Of a stretch of 64,000 nucleotides of DNA, positions 21,618 through 57,322 are shown piece after piece. Both the position numbers and the translations under genes were made by a program. The notes beneath the pieces are model-generated. The model worked only from the letters and a program-made list of their open reading frames with translations. It was not told the DNA's origin and searched no databases. Source of the DNA: Candidatus Shapirobacteria bacterium. Its GTDB lineage: Bacteria > Patescibacteriota > Microgenomatia > UBA12405. The stretch spans positions 364,791 through 428,790 of the forward strand of contig JBAZTV010000001.1 of assembly GCA_041661765.1 (NCBI GenBank), written 5' to 3'. The stretch's first letter is position 1. Each line of letters begins with the position of its first letter.

Positions 21618-22794
21618 TCATTTTAATTAATTTTTTTGCCTCTTTTACAGCAAAATTAATACCCCTATCTTCCGGATAAATTTGAGAAAAATTTAATCGA
21701 TATAACTTTTCATTAACTTTATAATTTGGAATTTTATAATTTTTTGTAACAATATGCTGGGCATTTTTAAATTTAAAAATCTTTTTTTCTAAAACCCGAT
21801 TTTCATCAAATTCTGGTTTAATTTTTTTTAAATAATCAAAAAATTCTTTTTCAATTTCTTTATCCGAAATTTTAAAATATCGATGGTCTTGTGGGACATA
21901 AGTTCCCAAATAATAAACATTTTTACCATTATATCCGCCGTTTTTTAATAGATTGTTATGTTGAACCATCACTAAAAAAGGGGATTTCAAATCATTAATA
22001 TTATGCCAATAAAATTCACTAAGACTCTGATCTGAAGAAAAAACCAAATCTACCGCTCCAATATAATCAACTCCCTCAGCTGGCCGTGTATCAATCACCA
22101 AATCAAAATCAGAAATCGCCCTGTCAAGGGAGATGTCCGCAGGACAGAGGGTTTGTACCTTTAAATTTTTAGCTAATTTTTTAATAATTAAACCAAACCC
22201 TCCATCAATATAACCTAAAACCTCTTCTCCTTTTTCATTAATTGATCCACCCCTAGTATGAATTCTAGCCCAAAGCCAAGCCATTGAAACTTTTTCGTAA
22301 TATTCATGGAACTTTCCTTTTAATAAAGGTTTCCAAATCACTTCATAAGCCCTTCTTCCAGCCCATTTTTCCATCCATTTCGCAGCTGTAACATCTTCAT
22401 ATTTCTTCCAATCTCCATCAAATTTAAGCCACAAATAAACCAAACCTAATCTAAATTTATCGACTAATCCCAATTCTCCAAATTTTAATAAATCAATTGC
22501 GCCTAAAAATGGGTACATTTTACCGTTATAATAAAGTCCAATCGAACTTTTATACCATTTTAATTTTTCTTTCAAACCCAATTCTTCAATTAAATTAATT
22601 ATTTCTTTATCAGTTTTAAAAATATGATGATAAACTTTTTCCAAACTTTCCCCTCCAATTTTAAAATCCGACAATAACCCGCCCATTTCTTTTTCTTTTT
22701 CAAAAATAGTTACATCATATCCTTTTTTAAATAACTCATATCCGGCAGTCAAACCGCCGATTCCTGCCCCAATAATCGCTACTTTTTTTTTCAT
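21598..22794 (-). CDS. FAD/NAD(P)-binding oxidoreductase (amine-oxidase / phytoene-desaturase-like; UDP-galactopyranose-mutase-like HHIFKT motif possible)
   Basis: N-terminal KVAIIGAGIGGLTAGYEL...IFEK...MGG dinucleotide-binding fold. Confidence 0.6.
   Translation of the reverse strand: MKKKVAIIGAGIGGLTAGYELFKKGYDVTIFEKEKEMGGLLSDFKIGGESLEKVYHHIFKTDKEIINLIEELGLKEKLKWYKSSIGLYYNGKMYPFLGAIDLLKFGELGLVDKFRLGLVYLWLKFDGDWKKYEDVTAAKWMEKWAGRRAYEVIWKPLLKGKFHEYYEKVSMAWLWARIHTRGGSINEKGEEVLGYIDGGFGLIIKKLAKNLKVQTLCPADISLDRAISDFDLVIDTRPAEGVDYIGAVDLVFSSDQSLSEFYWHNINDLKSPFLVMVQHNNLLKNGGYNGKNVYYLGTYVPQDHRYFKISDKEIEKEFFDYLKKIKPEFDENRVLEKKIFKFKNAQHIVTKNYKIPNYKVNEKLYRLNFSQIYPEDRGINFAVKEAKKLIKMIEDENK
22119..22155. 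repeat. Second copy of the CCCTGTCAAGGGAG two-hairpin GC-rich element, in frame inside the oxidoreductase CDS
   Basis: CCCTGTCAAGGGAG-ATGTCCGCAGGACA-GAGGGTTTG has the same architecture as 11713-11765; it encodes ...CPADISLDRAIS... Confidence 0.45.
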
Positions 22795-25359: not shown

Positions 25360-25995
25360 GTGCCACTCGAAAAATTTCCATTCAAAATAGAAAAACAATT
25401 TCGATTAAAAAATTGGGATTATTCATCATCCGGTTTTTATTTCATTACAATTTGTACACATGATCATACAAGTTATTTTGGCAAAATAATAAATAATAAT
25501 ATTGAATTAAATCAAATCGGAAAAATTGCATTTCAAGATTGGATAAATATTCCAAATCATTTTCAAAATATTATATTGGACGAATTTATCATTATGCCAA
25601 ATCATGTGCACGGAATATTAATAATTAATAATATAAACATGTGTAGGAACGCGCCGTGGCGCGTTCATTCAAACAATGATTTAACCATTCATTCAAACAA
25701 CAATAAAATTATTCATCCAATCAATAATTTCACAAATAATAATTTTAATATAAACAAGAACGCGCCACGGCGCGTTCCTACAGGGATTGAACCATTAATA
25801 CCAAATTCAATTTCATCAATTATTAATCATTTTAAAGGGAACATAACCAAATTTTGTAAAAACAACAATTTAAATTTCAAATGGCAACCAAAATTCCATG
25901 ACCGCGTTATTCGGTCCGAAAAAGAATATTACATCAGAAGGCAATACATTAAAAACAATCCTAAAAATTGGGGAAAAACAATCCCATCTTCTTGA
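25360..25995 (+). CDS. REP-associated tyrosine transposase (RAYT / TnpA_REP, IS200-like Y1 HUH family), GTG start
   Basis: N-terminal WDYSSSGFYFITICT beta-strand, HUH motif IIMPNHVHGIL, and a C-terminus KWQPKFHDRVIRSEKEYYIRRQYIKNNPKNWG closely paralleling E. coli RayT (WQPRFWEHAIRNTKDYRHHVDYIYINPVKHGW). Confidence 0.75.
   Translation: MPLEKFPFKIEKQFRLKNWDYSSSGFYFITICTHDHTSYFGKIINNNIELNQIGKIAFQDWINIPNHFQNIILDEFIIMPNHVHGILIINNINMCRNAPWRVHSNNDLTIHSNNNKIIHPINNFTNNNFNINKNAPRRVPTGIEPLIPNSISSIINHFKGNITKFCKNNNLNFKWQPKFHDRVIRSEKEYYIRRQYIKNNPKNWGKTIPSS
25643..25781. repeat. REPIN-like pair inside RAYT copy 1: GTAGGAACGCGCCGTGGCGCGTTC (25643-25666) and its exact reverse complement (25758-25781), separated by an AT-rich Asn-coding spacer
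   Basis: Exact 24-nt inverted copies, each itself palindromic, with the GTAG head conserved in REP elements. Confidence 0.8.
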
Positions 25996-26089: not shown

Positions 26090-26142
26090 TTGATGAACGG
26101 AAACATGGTTCAAAATTTTTGTGCCATCTTTCCGTTCATCAA
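26090..26142. promoter_or_regulatory. Inverted repeat TTGATGAACGGAAA-N25-TTTCCGTTCATCAA in the 5' leader of the 26175 gene
   Basis: Perfect 14-nt arms; same core and spacer length as the element at 10462-10513. Confidence 0.5.
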
Positions 26143-26964: not shown

Positions 26965-26992
26965 GTAGAGACGTAGTGCGCTACGTCTCTAC
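26965..26992. repeat. REP-like 28-nt palindrome GTAGAGACGTAGTGCGCTACGTCTCTAC (GTAG head), intergenic
   Basis: Perfect palindrome; same arms (GTAGAGACG...CGTCTCTAC) as the copy inside miaA at 56139-56166. Confidence 0.75.
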
Positions 26993-42135: not shown

Positions 42136-42551
42136 TGAAAACCACAGTTTTAAAAGGTAGTAATGTTGAAAGAAGTTGGCATTTAGTCGATATTAAGGGT
42201 AAAACTCTAGGTCGCATTTGTACTGAAATAGCCGAACTTTTAATAGGCAAAGACAAACCAGCTTTTTCCTATCATCGAGATGATGGTGATTATGTTGTTG
42301 CTATTAATGCCGCTGATATTATTACCACCGGTCGTAAATTAAAACAAAAAATTTATTACCATCACACAGCTTGGTCGGGTCATTTAAAAGAACTTACTCT
42401 CGGCGAACTTATGAGAAAAGATTCTCGTAAAGTTATAGAACATGGTGTTTATGGTATGTTGCCAAAAAATAAATTAAGAGATGTTAGAATGACTCGTTTA
42501 AAAATTTTTGTTGGCACTGACCACAAATACACTGAAAAATTTACTAAATAA
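42135..42551 (+). CDS. rplM: 50S ribosomal protein L13
   Basis: L13 family; position. Confidence 0.9.
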   Translation: MKTTVLKGSNVERSWHLVDIKGKTLGRICTEIAELLIGKDKPAFSYHRDDGDYVVAINAADIITTGRKLKQKIYYHHTAWSGHLKELTLGELMRKDSRKVIEHGVYGMLPKNKLRDVRMTRLKIFVGTDHKYTEKFTK

Positions 42552-42555
42552 AACT

Positions 42556-42969
42556 ATGGCAACAAAAAAAACTACTTCAAATACTTATACCTATGCAATT
42601 GGCAGAAGAAAAGCTGCTGTTGCTACTGTTAAATTATTTTCTGGAAAAGGTGAATCTACTATTAACAAAATTGCTATAGAAAAATATTTTCCCAGTAAAA
42701 CATCTAAAATTGCCTACGACAGACCCTTCTTAATTACCGATAATGTTGGTAAGTATTATTTTGAGGCCAGATTAATCGGTGGCGGTAAGGGTGGTCAAGT
42801 TGAGGCCCTTAGCTTAGCTCTTTGTCGTGCTTTGGTTAAAATAAATGAAGCCTTCAAACCTATTATTAAACCAACTGGTTTATTAACTGTTGACTCTCGT
42901 GTTAAAGAAAGAAGAATGGTTGGTACTGGTGGTAAAGCTCGTCGCCAAAAGCAATCTCCAAAGCGTTAA
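42556..42969 (+). CDS. rpsI: 30S ribosomal protein S9
   Basis: C-terminal GGKARRQKQSPKR; true start MATKK at 42556, while the track ORF starts at 42508. Confidence 0.9.
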   Translation: MATKKTTSNTYTYAIGRRKAAVATVKLFSGKGESTINKIAIEKYFPSKTSKIAYDRPFLITDNVGKYYFEARLIGGGKGGQVEALSLALCRALVKINEAFKPIIKPTGLLTVDSRVKERRMVGTGGKARRQKQSPKR

Positions 42970-42988: not shown

Positions 42989-43017
42989 GTAGGGGACAGG
43001 CATGCCTGTCCCTTTTC
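42989..43017 (+). terminator. Rho-independent terminator after rpsI, formed by a GTAG-headed REP-like palindrome
   Basis: GTAGGGGACAGG-CATG-CCTGTCCC followed by TTTTCGG. Confidence 0.8.
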
Positions 43018-43678: not shown

Positions 43679-44407
43679 ATGTCATTTTTACAAGCTATAA
43701 TTCTCAGTTTTATTCAAGGCATTGCCGAATTTTTGCCAATTTCTTCTTCAGGTCATCTCAATTTAGCTCAATATTTTTTTAAAATTGAACCATCATTAAC
43801 TTTAGATATTTTCCTCAACACCGCTACTTTTTTATCAGTTCTTTTTTTCTTTCGAAAACAATTAAAATATTTTTTTACCAATCTAAAATTTATTATCGTT
43901 GCTTCAATTCCAGCCGCCTTGGTTGGCATTTTATTCAAAGACCAAGTTGATTCCATTTTTGCCAACATTCATCTTTTACCATTTTTCTTCATTTTAGGTT
44001 CAATTTTTGTTTTTTCAACCAAATTTTTTGGCTCAAAAGACGAAAAATTAAATTATAAAAAAGCCATCATTATCGGAATTTTTCAAGCCATCGCCATTTT
44101 ACCCGGAGTTTCTCGCGCTGGTGCCACTATTTTTACTGGTTTATTATTAGGACTCGCCCCAATTCAAGCCTTCAATTTTTCCTTTTGTCTTTTTATTCCA
44201 GCCTCTTTTGGCGCCCTTCTTTTAGGTGCCAAAGATTTATCTACTTCCGGAATTTTGAGCCCAGAATATTTATTGGCATTTATAATTACTTTCTTTGTTG
44301 GTATTTTTGCCCTCGGTGTTCTTAAAAAAGTTTTAATCGGTTACAAATTTTGGATCTTTGGAATTTACACTTTTATACTAGCTATCATCACTTTTTTCAT
44401 TCTTTAA
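43679..44407 (+). CDS. uppP: Undecaprenyl-diphosphatase (BacA/UppP)
   Basis: FIQGIAEFLPISSSGHL N-terminal signature; multi-TM. Confidence 0.85.
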   Translation: MSFLQAIILSFIQGIAEFLPISSSGHLNLAQYFFKIEPSLTLDIFLNTATFLSVLFFFRKQLKYFFTNLKFIIVASIPAALVGILFKDQVDSIFANIHLLPFFFILGSIFVFSTKFFGSKDEKLNYKKAIIIGIFQAIAILPGVSRAGATIFTGLLLGLAPIQAFNFSFCLFIPASFGALLLGAKDLSTSGILSPEYLLAFIITFFVGIFALGVLKKVLIGYKFWIFGIYTFILAIITFFIL

Positions 44408-44424
44408 CGTTATAATGTCATTAT

Positions 44425-45186
44425 ATGATCAAAAAAGATTTTAAAGCCCGTGAACTCTTAAAAAAAAGTCTAGTTTTATATAAAAAAAATTTTTTAACTT
44501 TATTTATCATTGCACTTGCGCCATTATTTTTCTCTATTTTTTTATCATTAATAACTAATTCATACTCGTCATCCGTTTTAAGTTGGTTTTCTAATCTAAT
44601 TGAAGGAAAAAATATTAGTTTTAATATTTTAAGTCTTTCAACATCGATTTTAATCGTTCTATTAGTTTTCATTATTAATTCCGTCATTGCTAGCTGGGGA
44701 GAATTAGCCCTGTTAAATACAGTAAAAAATCAAGAAAGAAATATCTCAGAAGTTTGTAAACAAACTTGGAAAAAAATAATTCCGTTCTGGTTGTTATCTA
44801 TAATTTATTATTCAATCAGCTCACTTGGAACAATCTTATTAATAATTCCAGGGATTTTATTCATAATTTGGTTTAGTCTTTGTTTTTGGATTTTTGTTGA
44901 TCAAGACATTAGAGGTTTTGATGCCTTAAAACTTAGTCGTAAATATATGAAAGGAAATGTCTCCTATTTTCTTAAAAAATGGCTTTATCTATTAATTCCA
45001 TACATAATCCTTTCAATCTTTTTAGAAATTATTTTAAAAACAACCAATTCATCTGATTTTATTAGTAGTTTAATAGATAATATTTTCGCTGCTTTAATAG
45101 GACCAATTTTCACAATCTATAGTTATTTTATCTACCAAAAAATTAAATCAACTAAAATTAAAACTATCAAACACGAGAAGAATTAA
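44425..45186 (+). CDS. Hypothetical polytopic membrane protein
   Basis: About 6 TM segments; no family recognised. Confidence 0.45.
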   Translation: MIKKDFKARELLKKSLVLYKKNFLTLFIIALAPLFFSIFLSLITNSYSSSVLSWFSNLIEGKNISFNILSLSTSILIVLLVFIINSVIASWGELALLNTVKNQERNISEVCKQTWKKIIPFWLLSIIYYSISSLGTILLIIPGILFIIWFSLCFWIFVDQDIRGFDALKLSRKYMKGNVSYFLKKWLYLLIPYIILSIFLEIILKTTNSSDFISSLIDNIFAALIGPIFTIYSYFIYQKIKSTKIKTIKHEKN

Positions 45187-45437
45187 CATTCCCCAGTCTT
45201 TCCACCTAATCTATCAATCACCATTTTCTTTAAATTTTCCGACGCCACTTTAATAACTCTTCTTTTTTTGACTTTTTGTTTTCTATTTTGAGTCTCAACT
45301 TCAATTTTGAAAACCAATTCTTGTTCAATTTTATTTTCTATATCCATAATTATTTTTAACAGTCTCCCTTTCATCAAAGGGATAAACGGCGAAGCCGAGA
45401 GGGATTTTAATATTGTCCGCTCATATAATTTTTCCAA
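45183..45437 (-). CDS. Doubtful small ORF downstream of the exonuclease gene; its 5' end overlaps the exonuclease 3' end
   Basis: No convincing RBS for any of three possible starts. Confidence 0.2.
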   Translation of the reverse strand: MEKLYERTILKSLSASPFIPLMKGRLLKIIMDIENKIEQELVFKIEVETQNRKQKVKKRRVIKVASENLKKMVIDRLGGKTGEC

Positions 45438-46363
45438 ATTAAATATAATTCAGTTGTCGCCATAGCATCTCTGGCTACGTAATCAGCAATTTTATTAAAT
45501 TCACCAGCATTATATAAAGGAGAAACATCACCTCCATGTACTCCTTTTGCTTTTGGATTTTCAATATTAAAAGCTTTACATAACATTTCCAATTGAAAAC
45601 TGCGACCATTTTGTCGAATTTTATTAGCCAAATCAATTGATTTTTCTGATCCCCATTTTTTAATTTCAAATGGCATTTTTACTCGATTAATTCCCGATCT
45701 AATCATTAAATAAGGAAAATCAAAACCATCACCATTATAAGTCACAAATTGTTCATATTTTTGTGTAATACTCCAAAATTCTTCCAATAATTCTTTTTCT
45801 GTAGTAAATATTTTATAATTAAAATTAGCTTTTTCTGGCACAATTTCTTTACTCGACAAACTCAAAACAAATCCGGTTTTATTATTAATATCATACGCCC
45901 CAATAGCACAAACCATTCCAAAAATAGAATATATTGCCGTTTTTCCTTTAGCTTTTTCTTTATCTGTTTCAACTCTTTCCAAATTATTTAATAAATAATC
46001 TTGTTCAATCTCATCTAGTTCTTCAAAATTCTTCCCCAAAGTTTCAATATCAAAAACCAAGGTTGGTATAGAAGGGGAATAATCATCAACATCCTCATTT
46101 GTCACGATCTGACAGCTATCAATTATTATTCCCATCTTTCCATTATATTCTTGAGTCTTTCCATTTAATTCAATTACTTTCCCAACTTCAAAATTACATT
46201 GAGGGATATTATTATTCCAAATTTTAGCTTCAATTTTTCCATCTTTATTATTTAATTCCAAAACATAAAAATTGTCTCCGTTTTTAGTTTGTTTAATTTC
46301 TTGATTGCTCACCAAAAAATGTCTATCTCTTATTAATTCATTTGTTTCAAATTTAATTGCCAT
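45407..46363 (-). CDS. 3'-5' exonuclease of the PolB-exonuclease-like (RNase H fold) family with an N-terminal OB-fold-like domain
   Basis: Exo I VFDIETLG, Exo II YNGDGFDFPYL, Exo III YVARDAMATTELY. Confidence 0.6.
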   Translation of the reverse strand: MAIKFETNELIRDRHFLVSNQEIKQTKNGDNFYVLELNNKDGKIEAKIWNNNIPQCNFEVGKVIELNGKTQEYNGKMGIIIDSCQIVTNEDVDDYSPSIPTLVFDIETLGKNFEELDEIEQDYLLNNLERVETDKEKAKGKTAIYSIFGMVCAIGAYDINNKTGFVLSLSSKEIVPEKANFNYKIFTTEKELLEEFWSITQKYEQFVTYNGDGFDFPYLMIRSGINRVKMPFEIKKWGSEKSIDLANKIRQNGRSFQLEMLCKAFNIENPKAKGVHGGDVSPLYNAGEFNKIADYVARDAMATTELYLIWKNYMSGQY

Positions 46364-53499: not shown

Positions 53500-54570
53500 A
53501 TGAAATTATCAATCGGCATCGTCGGTCTCCCAAACGTTGGCAAATCAACTCTTTTTAATGCATTACTCGGCAAGCAAGTTGCTGATGCCAGCAATTATCC
53601 TTTTTGCACCATCGATCCAAATGTTGGTGTAGTCGAAGTCCCCGACGAAAAATTACCCGTTCTTGCAGAAATTGTTAAAACCAATAAAATTGTTCCCGCC
53701 ATTGTCGAATTTGTCGACATTGCCGGCTTGGTCAAAGGTGCCTCGCAAGGTGAAGGTCTCGGTAATAAATTCCTTACCAATATTCGTGACTGTGATGCTA
53801 TCTGCCATGTCGTTCGTGCCTTTTCCGATACAAACATTATTAAAGAGGGTTCCGTTGATCCACAAGGCGATTTTGAAGTCATTTGTGCCGAACTAATTAT
53901 TAAAGATTTAGAAACCATTGATAAATATATTGGCGTCAGTAAAAATAATTTAAAGGAAAGTAAAACTAAAAAATTTACCATAGCTGAAAAATTAAAATCA
54001 GAGTTAGAAAAGGGGATTTTAACCGTCAACTTAAATTTGAATGATGAAGAAAGAGAATTAGTCAAAGAATTTTTCTTACTAACCGCCAAACCATATTTTA
54101 TTGTCGCCAATGTTGATGAAGACACTTATCAAAATATTAAAGATTGGAAAATAAATTTAGATAATTTTGAAACAGTCGTTCCTGTTTGTGCAAAAGTAGA
54201 ATTTGATTTAACCGAATTAAGTCCAATCGAAAAAAGAGATTATTTAAGAGAATTAGGTGTTCAACAATCTGGGCTCGAGCGAGTCATTCAAAAAGCCTAT
54301 AACACTCTCGGTCTTCAATCTTATTACACTGCCGGTGTCAAAGAGGCGAGAGCTTGGACTATTTACAAAGGAAGCACCGCTCCCAAAGCCGCTGCCGCCA
54401 TTCACACCGATTTTGAAAAAGGTTTTATTATGGCCGAAGTTGTTTCTTATCAGGATTTTGTCCAATATAAAGGCTTATTAGGTGCCAAAGAAGCTGGCAA
54501 ACTTCGTCATGAAGGTCGTGAATACACCATGCGCCCCGACGATGTAGTTGAATTTAGAATAAACGCCTAA
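53500..54570 (+). CDS. ychF: Ribosome-binding ATPase YchF
   Basis: GIVGLPNVGKSTLFNAL plus C-terminal TGS domain. Confidence 0.9.
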   Translation: MKLSIGIVGLPNVGKSTLFNALLGKQVADASNYPFCTIDPNVGVVEVPDEKLPVLAEIVKTNKIVPAIVEFVDIAGLVKGASQGEGLGNKFLTNIRDCDAICHVVRAFSDTNIIKEGSVDPQGDFEVICAELIIKDLETIDKYIGVSKNNLKESKTKKFTIAEKLKSELEKGILTVNLNLNDEERELVKEFFLLTAKPYFIVANVDEDTYQNIKDWKINLDNFETVVPVCAKVEFDLTELSPIEKRDYLRELGVQQSGLERVIQKAYNTLGLQSYYTAGVKEARAWTIYKGSTAPKAAAAIHTDFEKGFIMAEVVSYQDFVQYKGLLGAKEAGKLRHEGREYTMRPDDVVEFRINA

Positions 54571-54608
54571 AATGTATTAATTATCACAATATGATTTAAA
54601 ATCATTAT

Positions 54609-55391
54609 GTGAAGTTTGAAAAATTTCCATTTAAATTAGAAAAACAGTTTCGATTAAGAAATTGGGATTACTCATCGTCTGGTTTCTATTTTGTCACGAT
54701 TTGTACCAAAGATCGGTTAAAAATTTTAGGTTCTGTTGTTGTAGGAACGGACCTTTGTGTCCGTTCCTCTGAAAATAATAATGTCCGTTCATTAAAAAAT
54801 AATTTAAATAACGAAACCAATTCCTCTGAAAATATCAACAATAATCATTCATTTAACAACAACATTTGTTCATCAGAAAATAATTTAATCTGTTCCTTCA
54901 AAAATAATTTAAATATTCACCAAGAAATTAAACTAAACATTTATAAAAACATTAATCAAAATATCAGTCGAAATATTCATCAAAACAATAATATTAATTT
55001 ATCCGATTTTGGAAAATCATGCCATCGTATTTGGTCAAATATTCCCAAAAAATTTAAAAATGTAATTTTAGATGATTTTATTATCATGCCTGATCATATT
55101 CATGGAATTATTTGTATTAAAAATGATTATCAGGAACGGACACAAAGGTCCGTTCCTACAGAGTTTGGAAATGTTGGTTTATTGGGTCAAATAATTAGAT
55201 GGTTTAAAACCATATCCACGAATGAATATGTAAATGGTGTTAAAAAATATAATTGGCCAAAATTTAATAAACAAATTTGGCAATCTCGTTTCAATGATCG
55301 TATTATTCGGTCAGAAAAAGAATTTTATATCAAGAAAATATATATTAAAAATAATCCTAAAAATTGGGGTAAAGACAAAGAGAATGTATAA
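54609..55391 (+). CDS. REP-associated tyrosine transposase (RAYT) paralog 2 with a ~120-aa Asn-rich low-complexity insertion, GTG start
   Basis: Same N-terminus (EKFPFKLEKQFRLRNWDYSSSGFYFVTICT), HUH (IIMPDHIHGII) and C-terminus (WQSRFNDRIIRSEKEFYIKKIYIKNNPKNWG) as copy 1. Confidence 0.7.
   Translation: MKFEKFPFKLEKQFRLRNWDYSSSGFYFVTICTKDRLKILGSVVVGTDLCVRSSENNNVRSLKNNLNNETNSSENINNNHSFNNNICSSENNLICSFKNNLNIHQEIKLNIYKNINQNISRNIHQNNNINLSDFGKSCHRIWSNIPKKFKNVILDDFIIMPDHIHGIICIKNDYQERTQRSVPTEFGNVGLLGQIIRWFKTISTNEYVNGVKKYNWPKFNKQIWQSRFNDRIIRSEKEFYIKKIYIKNNPKNWGKDKENV
54741..55159. repeat. Inverted REP pair inside RAYT copy 2: GTAGGAACGGACCTTTGTGTCCGTTCCT (54741-54768) and its exact reverse complement (55132-55159)
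   Basis: Exact 28-nt inverted copies with GTAG head; a partial third copy (TGTCCGTTCATT) lies at ~54782. Confidence 0.8.
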
Positions 55392-55400
55392 TAAACCATT

Positions 55401-56336
55401 ATGAAAAAAATCATCATCATTTCTGGTCCAACCGCCACCGGTAAAACCGATTTAGCGTCGAAATTGGCAAAAAAATATAACGGAGAATTAGTTTCTACTG
55501 ATTCTTGCCAAATTTATAAAGGTCTCGACATTGGTACCGGTAAAGATCAGCCATGCGAAACTCCAATTCATTTGATTGATTTAATTAATCCTGATCAAAA
55601 ATTTTCTGTTGCTCAATTTCAACAAGCCGGACTAGAGATTATCAACAAACTTCATTCCCAAAATAAATTACCAATTTTAGTTGGCTGTAGTGGTTTTTAT
55701 TTAGATTCGTTAATTAATTCAAGATATGACACTTTTTCCATTAAACCAAATAAAATTTGGAGGATTATTTCCAAAAAATTACCAGTCAAAACATTACAAA
55801 AGATTTATAAATTTTTAGATTCTCAAAATTTTTCCAAATTAAACAATTCCGATATTAACAATCATTATCGTTTAACCCGCAAAATCGAAATCAAATTATT
55901 TGTAGGGGCGGACCCTCGTGTCCGCCCTCAAAAAGCAGAGGGTTTCGACATCCTCCATATCTCTCTCATCGCTCCTCTCGATCTTCTTTACGGTCGCATC
56001 GATCAACGAGTCCAAAAAAGAATAGATATGGGATTCTTAGATGAAATAAAAAATTTATTGAAAAAATATTCTTGGAAAGATCCCGGTCTTCAAATCGGAG
56101 CTTACCAATGCTTAAAACCATATTTTGAAAAACAAAATGTAGAGACGCCATGCGTGGCGTCTCTACTAAACACCTGTCTTCAAAAATGGAAATACGCCGA
56201 ACACAGCGACGCTCGTCGCCAAAGCACTTATTTAAAATCAAGATATAAAGAAAAGGCTCAATTTTTTGACATTACTTCCTCAAATTTTAAAAATAAAATT
56301 TTTAAAATAATTTCCAAATGGTACAATGAATCATGA
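55401..56336 (+). CDS. miaA: tRNA dimethylallyltransferase
   Basis: P-loop ISGPTATGKTDLA and DSCQIYKGLDIGT(G)K. Confidence 0.85.
   Translation: MKKIIIISGPTATGKTDLASKLAKKYNGELVSTDSCQIYKGLDIGTGKDQPCETPIHLIDLINPDQKFSVAQFQQAGLEIINKLHSQNKLPILVGCSGFYLDSLINSRYDTFSIKPNKIWRIISKKLPVKTLQKIYKFLDSQNFSKLNNSDINNHYRLTRKIEIKLFVGADPRVRPQKAEGFDILHISLIAPLDLLYGRIDQRVQKRIDMGFLDEIKNLLKKYSWKDPGLQIGAYQCLKPYFEKQNVETPCVASLLNTCLQKWKYAEHSDARRQSTYLKSRYKEKAQFFDITSSNFKNKIFKIISKWYNES
55902..55927. repeat. REP-like GTAG-headed palindrome GTAGGGGCGGACCCTCGTGTCCGCCC, in frame inside miaA
   Basis: GGCGGAC...GTCCGCC stem; encodes VGADPRVRP. Same GTAGGGG head as the rpsI terminator element. Confidence 0.6.
56139..56166. repeat. 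REP-like 28-nt palindrome GTAGAGACGCCATGCGTGGCGTCTCTAC, in frame inside miaA
   Basis: Perfect palindrome with the same arms as 26965-26992; encodes VETPCVASLL. Confidence 0.75.
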
Positions 56337-57322
56337 AAGTTAGAAAAATAGAAATTTCTCCCAAAACCATTGTTTTTACAGTCTTTTTTTTATTGGCCTT
56401 GGTTTTCTTTTGGCAAATAAGAAGTATCCTCATTATGGTCTTTATCAGTTTTGTTTTAATGCATGCCCTTGATCCATTAGTTAATCGTCTCGAGAGAATA
56501 AAACTTCCTAGACTAATCGCTATTTTAATTGTCTACTTTTTAGTCTTTGGTGTTATTTCTTTTAGTATTGCCGGTATAATTCCAATTTTAATTGAACAAA
56601 CAACTGGATTGATCAATAGTTTGCCCAAAATTACTCAAAATATAAAAATTTTTAATGAAAATAGTTTTTTCAATGAAAACAATATTGATCTAACTTCTCA
56701 ATTTAAAATTATTGAAACCATCCCTTCAAGTCTCACCCAAATAGTTTTTTCAATTGTTTCCAATGTTTTTTCTGCCCTAATCATTTTAGTAATTACTTTT
56801 TATCTCCTTTTGGAAAAGAAAAATTTTCCAAAATATGGTGATAATTTTTTTGGGGAAAAAGGTAAAACAAAATTTTTAAAAATAATGGATAATTTAGAAA
56901 CAAGTCTTGGCAGTTGGGTTAGTGCTGAGCTTCTTTTAATGAGCATCATTGGTATTATTTCGTATCTTGGTTACCTAACCCTAGGATTAAAATATGCCGT
57001 TCCATTGGCTATTATTGCAGGTCTATTAGAAGCTGTTCCAAATATCGGTCCAATTATTGCCACTGTTCTTGCTGGTTTAGTTGGATTAACTGTTTCACCA
57101 CTAATTGCTCTTTTCACTGTCATTTTTGGGATTTTAGTTCAACAATTAGAAAACACTTTTATAGTTCCCAAAATTATGAGAAAAACAGTTGGCTTGAACC
57201 CATTGGTGACTATTATTTTAATTGCGTCAGGCGGTCAAATCGCTGGAATGGGTGGTGCATTATTAGCCATACCACTTTTCTTAACTGCCCAGGCTATAGT
57301 AAGAGGATTATCAAAAGATTAA
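56333..57322 (+). CDS. AI-2E family transporter (UPF0118/PerM-like)
   Basis: 8-TM topology with the family-typical N-terminal arrangement. Confidence 0.65.
   Translation: MKVRKIEISPKTIVFTVFFLLALVFFWQIRSILIMVFISFVLMHALDPLVNRLERIKLPRLIAILIVYFLVFGVISFSIAGIIPILIEQTTGLINSLPKITQNIKIFNENSFFNENNIDLTSQFKIIETIPSSLTQIVFSIVSNVFSALIILVITFYLLLEKKNFPKYGDNFFGEKGKTKFLKIMDNLETSLGSWVSAELLLMSIIGIISYLGYLTLGLKYAVPLAIIAGLLEAVPNIGPIIATVLAGLVGLTVSPLIALFTVIFGILVQQLENTFIVPKIMRKTVGLNPLVTIILIASGGQIAGMGGALLAIPLFLTAQAIVRGLSKD

Follow-up and report, generated by a model that had tools for sequence, protein, structure and literature searches.

In-frame repetitive extragenic palindromes (REPs) inside the gene of a REP-associated tyrosine transposase (RAYT) are the hallmark of TnpA_Y1 subclass 2.4 as described by Quentin, Siguier, Chandler and Fichant (2018, BMC Genomics 19:475; PMC6006769). 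In this subclass the insertion between β3 and αC is highly variable and is built of short DNA repeats, the insertions lie 'generally between HuH and Y', and 'double-foot' GTAG...CTAC REPs occur. The variable region was modelled, with a protein from Calothrix PCC 7507 as the example, as a peripheral extension that has little effect on activity. For REPs that are perfect palindromes, the loop bases are essential in vitro and cleavage takes place at a CT dinucleotide adjoining the REP (Corneloup et al., 2021; PMC8266576), and a catalogue of in-frame REPs in other genes is also available (Di Nocera et al., 2013; PMC3733652). Here we describe RAYT-2, the second of two RAYT genes (the other is RAYT-1, or copy 1) in a 64,000-nt stretch of DNA, hereafter the window, that lies on a contig of at least 445 kb from a Shapirobacteria-like host. 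In-frame REPs inside RAYT genes have been known since 2018 and RAYT-2 is a further case. We propose that RAYT-2 is quite likely a functional, vertically inherited RAYT of the subclass 2.4 type that carries its own GTAG-footed REPs in frame in its coding sequence. Its features are the following, in window coordinates.

54609..55391 (stop codon included), plus strand: RAYT paralog 2, a TnpA_REP-like Y1 HUH endonuclease of 260 aa, from an open reading frame (ORF) with a GTG start.
54741..54768, plus strand: REP-L, a GTAG-footed hairpin with a 10-bp stem and the loop CTTTGT, translated in frame to VGTDLCVRSS, which lies in the β1-αA loop.
54769..54980, plus strand: Asn-rich tract, a decayed minisatellite of ~24-nt units seen with Tandem Repeats Finder (TRF) and as direct repeats (GC 0.21; 31% Asn).
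54981..55131, plus strand: conserved core between the hairpins (αA, β2, β3 and HUH), which aligns with copy 1 and all homologs.
55095-55103, plus strand: HUH motif H163-I-H165, from the alignment with 30 homologs.
55132..55159, minus strand: REP-R, a second copy of the 28-nt GTAG-footed hairpin, whose in-frame translation in the β3-αC loop is (Q)ERTQRSVPT.
55341..55343, plus strand: codon of Tyr245, the predicted catalytic residue, in the motif YIKNNP that also includes the invariant N249, from alignment A1.

RAYT-2 is the single long ORF of the region, and profile scores, family assignment and structure all agree with an earlier note on this DNA in identifying its product as a Y1 enzyme of the RAYT type. 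When REP-L, the tract and REP-R are taken out, the remaining 166-aa core scores 24.3 bits with Pfam Y1_Tnp (PF01797) against a cut-off of 23 and spans profile positions 8-121, nearly the whole profile, so that identification as a Y1 transposase by profile search succeeds for the core but not for the native protein. NCBIfam NF047646 (REP_Tyr_transpos) is the best-scoring family for both paralogs. An AlphaFold (AF2) model built on 30 homologs has a predicted local distance difference test score (pLDDT) of 84-94 in the core, and of 92-94 in the segment 54981..55131, and falls below 50 in the parts that are encoded by the hairpins or rich in Asn, at residues 44-90 and 176-183. A sequence search against the PDB was uninformative, with spurious HMGB1 matches and 4er8 at E 0.43 (phmmer), a very low similarity to RAYT-2, and hence a structure-based search was needed. 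With Foldseek the top 30 PDB matches of the model are all Y1 transposases (ISDra2, IS608, IS200 and 4er8), and the match to 4er8_A, which is TnpA_REP bound to REP, has a TMt of 0.59. The residues H163 and H165 (HUH), Y245 and N249 do not vary among the 30 homologs of alignment A1, and as judged from this alignment the HUH motif and the putative catalytic Tyr of RAYT-2 are intact. The protein ends 10 residues past YIKNNP and is without the conserved C-terminal extension. An Rfam scan of 54400-56400 returned nothing relevant.

The 28-mer GTAGGAACGGACCTTTGTGTCCGTTCCT at 54741-54768 on the plus strand has its exact reverse complement at 55132-55159, 363 nt further on, and with up to three mismatches allowed these are the only two matches in the window, compared with none in 100 shuffles. 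Each 28-mer, with GTAG as its 5' foot, is a perfect hairpin that has a 10-bp stem (AGGAACGGAC/GTCCGTTCCT) and a loop of 6 nt, and each folds as single-stranded DNA (ssDNA) with an energy of -10.5 kcal/mol (z = -5.7 and -6.2). Hence REP-L and REP-R are one oriented element that is present once on each strand with the feet outward. REP-L codes for residues 45-54 (VGTDLCVRSS), between β1 and αA, and REP-R for residues 176-184 (ERTQRSVPT), just past the HUH strand and before αC. The hairpins thus occupy two low-confidence loops of the modelled fold, β1-αA and β3-αC, and the reading frame is unbroken through the whole region of the hairpins and the tract. The earlier note had reported the 28-nt REP and its exact reverse complement, had placed one between β1 and HUH and the other just after HUH, and had put the HUH segment within the REP-flanked interval. 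The search, the alignment and the model bear this out in each respect, with H163-I-H165 lying between the two hairpins.

The evidence that the gene is functional comes from its relatives. A protein search gave 330 of them, the closest from Candidatus Shapirobacteria and other Microgenomates, and more than 20 homologs (40-75% identity) have retained 'VGTD..CV.S' upstream and 'E[RQ]T..SVPT' downstream of the HUH segment. The same homologs have Asn/Ser-rich tandem repeats of variable length beside the left hairpin, such as VCSSPSKH three times over in P0018 and SSESNINY three times over in P0003, while P0010 and P0013 have the same two hairpins with both placed after HUH. The locus L199 is a syntenic ortholog, with the order ychF-RAYT-miaA-AI-2E transporter in common. 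In the core, RAYT-2 and L199 have a ratio of nonsynonymous to synonymous divergence (dN/dS) of 0.08 at a dS of 0.88; in the tract dN is five times higher, with large indels, and L199 has a shorter and different array of three 24-nt units at the same place. A comparison of related genomes, which had been recommended for the Asn-rich insert, therefore finds repeats of variable length in the homologs and a different array in the ortholog. On these substitution rates the RAYT-2 core is under strong purifying selection, and the low core dN/dS together with the synteny with L199 indicates a functional gene that has been inherited vertically. RAYT-2 thus has the features of a domesticated RAYT, namely purifying selection, vertical descent and a fixed place in the chromosome.

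The hairpins themselves are widespread in the family. A scan of species-representative genomes gave over 556 relatives, spread across many phyla, and in a set of 84 homolog genes (80 scan loci, the metagenomic loci L005 and L008 and the two window genes) hairpins with a GT[AG]G foot have a density of 2.47/kb inside the genes versus 0.16/kb outside, a 15-fold difference. The arrangement seen in RAYT-2, with a plus hairpin before HUH and a minus hairpin after it, is found in 11 genes from Shapirobacteria, Chitinophagaceae and Clostridia. In the Shapirobacteria clade these include L005, L008, L119 and L120, and the same arrangement with unrelated REPs is present in Chitinophagaceae (L124), Clostridia and Bacillota (L129, L130, L136 and L186) and Eubacteriales (L171). 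In other homolog genes the two hairpins both come after HUH, or there is just one 'double-foot' palindrome. Separate internal pairs are ordered plus then minus, with the GTAG feet outward, in 23 genes and reversed in one. The internal REP has the same sequence as the gene-flanking REPs in L119, L120 and L200, and it is also dispersed kilobases away in L129, L138, L191 and L198. Hence the internal hairpins are genuine cognate REPs. As a separate observation, close doublets with a spacer of 23-47 nt are never identical and HUH-bracketing pairs, 141-363 nt apart, often are; the instability of perfect close palindromes may be the reason that close doublets differ.

The two hairpins of a gene also change together. 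Comparison of left and right in the 23 internal pairs gives 27 compensatory stem changes versus 11 one-sided ones, five of which come from a single locus with two different REPs. As the changes are mostly compensatory within each hairpin, each hairpin is kept as a local structure. Among the eight clade-A genes with DNA, the left loop equals the right loop in seven, there are seven distinct loops among the genes, and the left-right differences total 7 compared with 22.8 under random pairing (permutation p ~1e-4). Between RAYT-2 and L199 the sole difference in the 28-mer is in the loop, CTTTGT versus CCTTGT, and this T-to-C change is mirrored in both hairpins, which are conserved far above synonymous sites at the dS given above. 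The idea of RAYT-REP co-evolution in the earlier note is strengthened by this matching of loops within genes, their divergence between genes and the mirrored change in L199. These patterns show that the left and right hairpins evolve in concert, which fits the recognition of both hairpins by one enzyme, although gene conversion could give the same pattern.

In terms of the described systems, RAYT-2 is closest to subclass 2.4. GTAG-footed REPs lie within the ORFs of both RAYT-2 and copy 1 with the frame unbroken, copy 1 has a repeat-built variable insertion at β3-αC after the HUH strand, the lack of a C-terminal extension in RAYT-2 is shared, and 'double-foot' GTAG...CTAC REPs are found near the RAYT genes. 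The spread over many phyla is patchy in both cases, and a Calothrix relative is among the matches (L192). The differences include the host, which belongs to the candidate phyla radiation (CPR), whereas the names 'Microgenomates' and 'Parcubacteria' are absent from the main text of PMC6006769, and the base of the stem, which is A-T/G-C/G-C in RAYT-2 rather than three G-C pairs. The large insert of RAYT-2, derived from repeats, lies in the β1-αA loop, and at β3-αC there is no more than the 9 aa of REP-R.

Other known systems share fewer features with this locus. The E. coli TnpA_REP and its REPtron (Ton-Hoang et al., 2012; Messing et al., 2012, PDB 4ER8; PMC8266576) have the same Y1 HUH fold with HUH and Tyr motifs, the GTAG tetranucleotide at the hairpin foot and a cognate, co-evolving relation between enzyme and REP. 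However, the E. coli REPs flank the gene, are imperfect (bulged) and are present in hundreds of copies, whereas the REPs of RAYT-2 are perfect palindromes inside the ORF and no dispersed copies are seen. Intragenic GTAG/CGTC REPs and Rickettsia palindromic elements (PMC3733652) are likewise tolerated as in-frame palindromes that provide extra peptide segments, a likeness that extends to the neighbouring miaA gene, but their host genes are unrelated to the mobilising enzyme while here the host is the RAYT itself, and the RAYT insertion sites recur across phyla. The TnpA enzymes of the IS200/IS605 family (IS608 and ISDra2) are the best structural matches and share the recognition of ssDNA hairpins and the HUH/Tyr chemistry. 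In contrast to RAYT-2, these IS elements are multicopy and mobile, and their hairpins, which share one strand, are found at the ends of the element and not within the transposase ORF.

We propose that the two hairpins are cognate ssDNA substrates, or binding sites, of the enzyme in which they are encoded. The identity of left and right would be kept by this same enzyme reading both stem and loop, in the way that Corneloup et al. (2021) demonstrated in vitro for perfectly palindromic REPs, by gene conversion, or by both, and the inserts would be tolerated in-frame passengers in two permissive loops and not a mobile cassette. RAYT-2 is thus most probably a functional, domesticated Y1 endonuclease in which aberrant cleavage and rejoining, or repeat slippage, beside REP-L would have led to a disordered Asn-rich linker. 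Several points weigh against this proposal. The native 260-aa protein scores 10.4 bits with Pfam Y1_Tnp, under the cut-off of 23, and 42.8 bits (E 4.7e-11) with NF047646, short of the curated cut-off of 80 bits. The assignment to subclass 2.4 is indirect, by shared features and the Calothrix relative, and RAYT-2 differs from that subclass in having the left REP and the large insert upstream of HUH, with the catalytic segment enclosed by the pair. A role of the hairpins as substrates is inferred, for this protein and for the subclass alike, and the count of REP copies in the RAYT-2 genome covers 64 kb of the contig. Moreover, simple passive tolerance does not account for the near-universal plus-then-minus orientation of the internal pairs (23:1).

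The Asn-rich insert, with REP-L included, corresponds to residues 45-124, or ~80 aa and 240 nt, with 31% Asn and a GC of 0.21 in the tract. The low-complexity, repeat-built nature of the insertion stands as it was first described, but not its size of ~120 aa. The figure is corrected because 121 codons is the spacing from hairpin to hairpin, which includes ~45 conserved αA-β2-β3/HUH codons. The further claim that the tract is made of short direct repeats agrees with the TRF results, in which a 24-nt unit, TGTCCGTTC.TCTGAAAATAATAA, has two copies at 54758-54803 and recurs at 54867-54912, while a 12-nt unit is present 4.9 times at 54935-54993, and with the recurrence of TTCCTCTGAAAATA at 54764 and 54821 and, with 86% identity, at 54869. 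The 24-nt units begin with a remnant of the REP-L 3' arm (GTCCGTTCCTCTGAAAATA), and a CT dinucleotide lies directly 3' of REP-L. The Asn-rich stretch is a 24-nt minisatellite that was seeded on the REP-L 3' arm, expanded and drifted towards AT. Its origin could lie in slippage, or else in aberrant cleavage, with rejoining, at the CT 3' of REP-L.

Copy 1 provides the comparator within the window, with the following features.

25360..25995, plus strand: RAYT paralog 1, 211 aa, with both REPs after HUH (ORF, NCBIfam and alignment).
25643..25668, plus strand: left REP of copy 1, GTAGGAACGCGCCGTGGCGCGTTC (hairpin scan).
25756..25781, minus strand: right REP of copy 1, the same hairpin as the left REP and 87 nt from it.

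The copy 1 REP has the same GTAGGAACG foot as the RAYT-2 REP and a different core, and ~45 aa separate its two REPs. Each paralog therefore has, as had been claimed, its own REP variant as an inverted pair, GTAGGAACGGACCTTTGTGTCCGTTCCT in RAYT-2 and GTAGGAACGCGCCGTGGCGCGTTC in copy 1. The clade of copy 1 (P0027 and P0028) retains its own REP variant. With NF047646 copy 1 scores 39.8 bits (E 3.9e-10), which is likewise below the 80-bit cut-off. The two paralogs are old, with dS between them at saturation (1.25-2.5) in each of the N-terminal, middle and C-terminal segments. A recent gene conversion or cassette exchange between them is rejected because dS is saturated in every segment. In alignment A1 (P0001, P0010, P0013, P0014 and P0027) the identities are discordant between segments. 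For P0001, the HUH segment has 57% identity with the clade of copy 1 and 38% with P0014, and the C-terminal segment has 74% identity with P0014 and 45% with copy 1. In P0010 and P0013 the N-terminal organisation resembles that of copy 1 and the C-terminus that of copy 2. These discordant identities may stem from old recombination at REP sites, a signal that in such short segments is too weak to interpret.

A further reading, which we consider improbable, is a closed RAYT-REP system in this CPR clade. In such a system the only cognate REPs would be those inside the RAYT ORF or no more than ~110 nt from it, and the enzyme would act on its own gene. Self-cleavage with rejoining or repair at the CT by REP-L would generate the fast-evolving minisatellite, and the same activity, or conversion, would keep the hairpins identical. 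The strict outward-facing orientation would then also be explained. The REP variants of RAYT-2 and copy 1 have no other copy in the window, and in 181 kb from eight related loci all copies of the RAYT-2 REP (up to three substitutions) are in the gene or within ~110 nt of it. A metagenome scan for GGAACGGAC-N6-GTCCGTTCC, in a collection that does not include the source contig, gave 118 matches. These are mostly dispersed REPs of high-GC soil bacteria that have the same stem, only L005 and L008 are relevant, and the 410-kb contig that carries L005 has the one stem match only. The soil contigs (within L001-L118; GC 0.55-0.70) contain a dispersed REP, GT[GA]GGAACGGACGCATTCGTCCGTTCC, whose 9-bp stem is identical to that of the RAYT-2 hairpin. 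No gene of the RAYT-2 type was detected at the soil-contig hairpins, and L081 alone has a weak match (E 1e-4), about 1 kb from the hairpin.

Slightly less probable still is autoregulation through RNA. In this case the 28-mers would form a duplex of ~30 bp in the mRNA around the HUH-coding part, and this would lower RAYT expression as a target of RNase III or by a block of translation. The minimum free energy fold of the RNA from 54700-55200 is such a long-range duplex (-99.7 kcal/mol, z = -4.1), and the pairs that bracket HUH are identical in the window, L008, L120, L124, L199 and L200. However, the preponderance of compensatory changes described above (27 vs 11) keeps the local stems and breaks left-right complementarity (L005, L130, L131 and L137). 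Hence the long-range duplex is not the conserved feature, and selection for it is disfavoured. In addition, the local hairpins would form first in transcription, and close doublets are never identical.

The earlier note had also suggested a REPIN-like mobility of the intragenic unit, in which the REP-bounded segment would be a non-autonomous mobile element within the RAYT gene. This is largely refuted and we regard it as very unlikely. The two identical REPs are inverted as in the REPINs of REPIN-RAYT systems (Bertels and Rainey, 2011, PMC3116915; Bertels et al., 2017, PMC5581495), nearly all internal pairs have the plus-then-minus orientation, and in both systems the RAYT gene is vertically inherited with no self-copying. 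A REPIN, however, is a short non-coding multicopy doublet, whereas the 'spacer' of RAYT-2 codes for the catalytic segment and is unique in the sequence seen. Some 45 codons of the interval belong to the conserved αA-β2-β3(HUH) core that aligns with copy 1 and with all homologs, and as the interval includes this core it is not an inserted unit. Moreover, the hairpins occupy the same fixed positions in more than 20 homologs, as they do in L199, and no dispersed copies were found either in the window or, more than ~110 nt from the gene, in the 181 kb of related loci.

Even less credence can be given to an invertible cassette, in which recombination between the inverted 28-mers would flip the HUH segment and act as an on/off switch for the enzyme. 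The exact 28-bp inverted repeats do surround the catalytic segment at a distance of 363 nt, but as a substrate for homologous recombination 28 bp is short, an inversion would disrupt the ORF, and the segments are collinear on one strand in 84 of 84 homolog genes with no flipped variant. Finally, a mis-join in the assembly is barely conceivable as the source of the inverted repeats and the low-complexity tract since, although repeat-bounded low-complexity sequence is error-prone, the reading frame is intact throughout, the same architecture is present in independent assemblies from other samples (L199, L005, L008, L119, L120, L200/L201 and L202/L203), and protein cluster P0001 is recorded on two contigs. 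An exact look-up of the P0001 protein for independent contigs gave no record, and the length of the minisatellite is the only part of the region that is really at risk from mis-assembly.

The surroundings of the two RAYT genes contain further hairpins with GTAG feet. The miaA gene (55401..56336) has two of them in frame, at 56139-56166 and 55902-55927, which are the double-foot REP GTAGAGACGCCATGCGTGGCGTCTCTAC and GTAGGGGCGGACCCTCGTGTCCGCCC. The former adds eight codons (VETPCVAS) to miaA that are absent in the syntenic L199 ortholog, and hence it represents a lineage-specific REP insertion ~750 nt downstream of RAYT-2, in a sequence that differs from the internal REP of RAYT-2. A double-foot REP, GTAGAGACGTAGTGCGCTACGTCTCTAC, is also found at 26965-26992 in an intergenic position ~970 nt downstream of RAYT-1, and it and the miaA double-foot REP are of the same GTAGAGACG...CGTCTCTAC type. 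Of the six GTAG-hairpin loci in the window, five are within ~1 kb of a RAYT gene. The sequence GTAGGGGACAGGCATGCCTGTCCCTTTT at 42989-43014, directly 3' of rpsI (42508..42969), is a GTAG-footed hairpin followed by a T run and looks like an intrinsic terminator rather than a REP. About 100 nt past the RAYT-1 stop codon, and overlapping the start of the next ORF, there is an imperfect palindrome at 26090-26142 with 26-nt arms that are 88% complementary and 1 nt apart. The regions 20001-22000 and 44001-46000 have a low GC (0.26 and 0.28, versus ~0.34 elsewhere) and a strongly negative GC skew.

Our analysis extends the little-known oddity of in-frame REPs in RAYT genes to the small genomes of the CPR, and it adds to the earlier descriptions in several ways. 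There is a second recurrent insertion site upstream of HUH such that the hairpin pair brackets the catalytic segment, the co-variation of left and right hairpins is quantified with each stem kept by compensatory changes, the Asn-rich linker has its origin in a coding minisatellite that was seeded by a REP arm, and the RAYT-2 REP is apparently confined to its gene and the immediate flanks. These additions are modest and leave the overall picture unchanged, but they bear on the role of RAYTs for their hosts and on the co-evolution of enzyme and hairpin.

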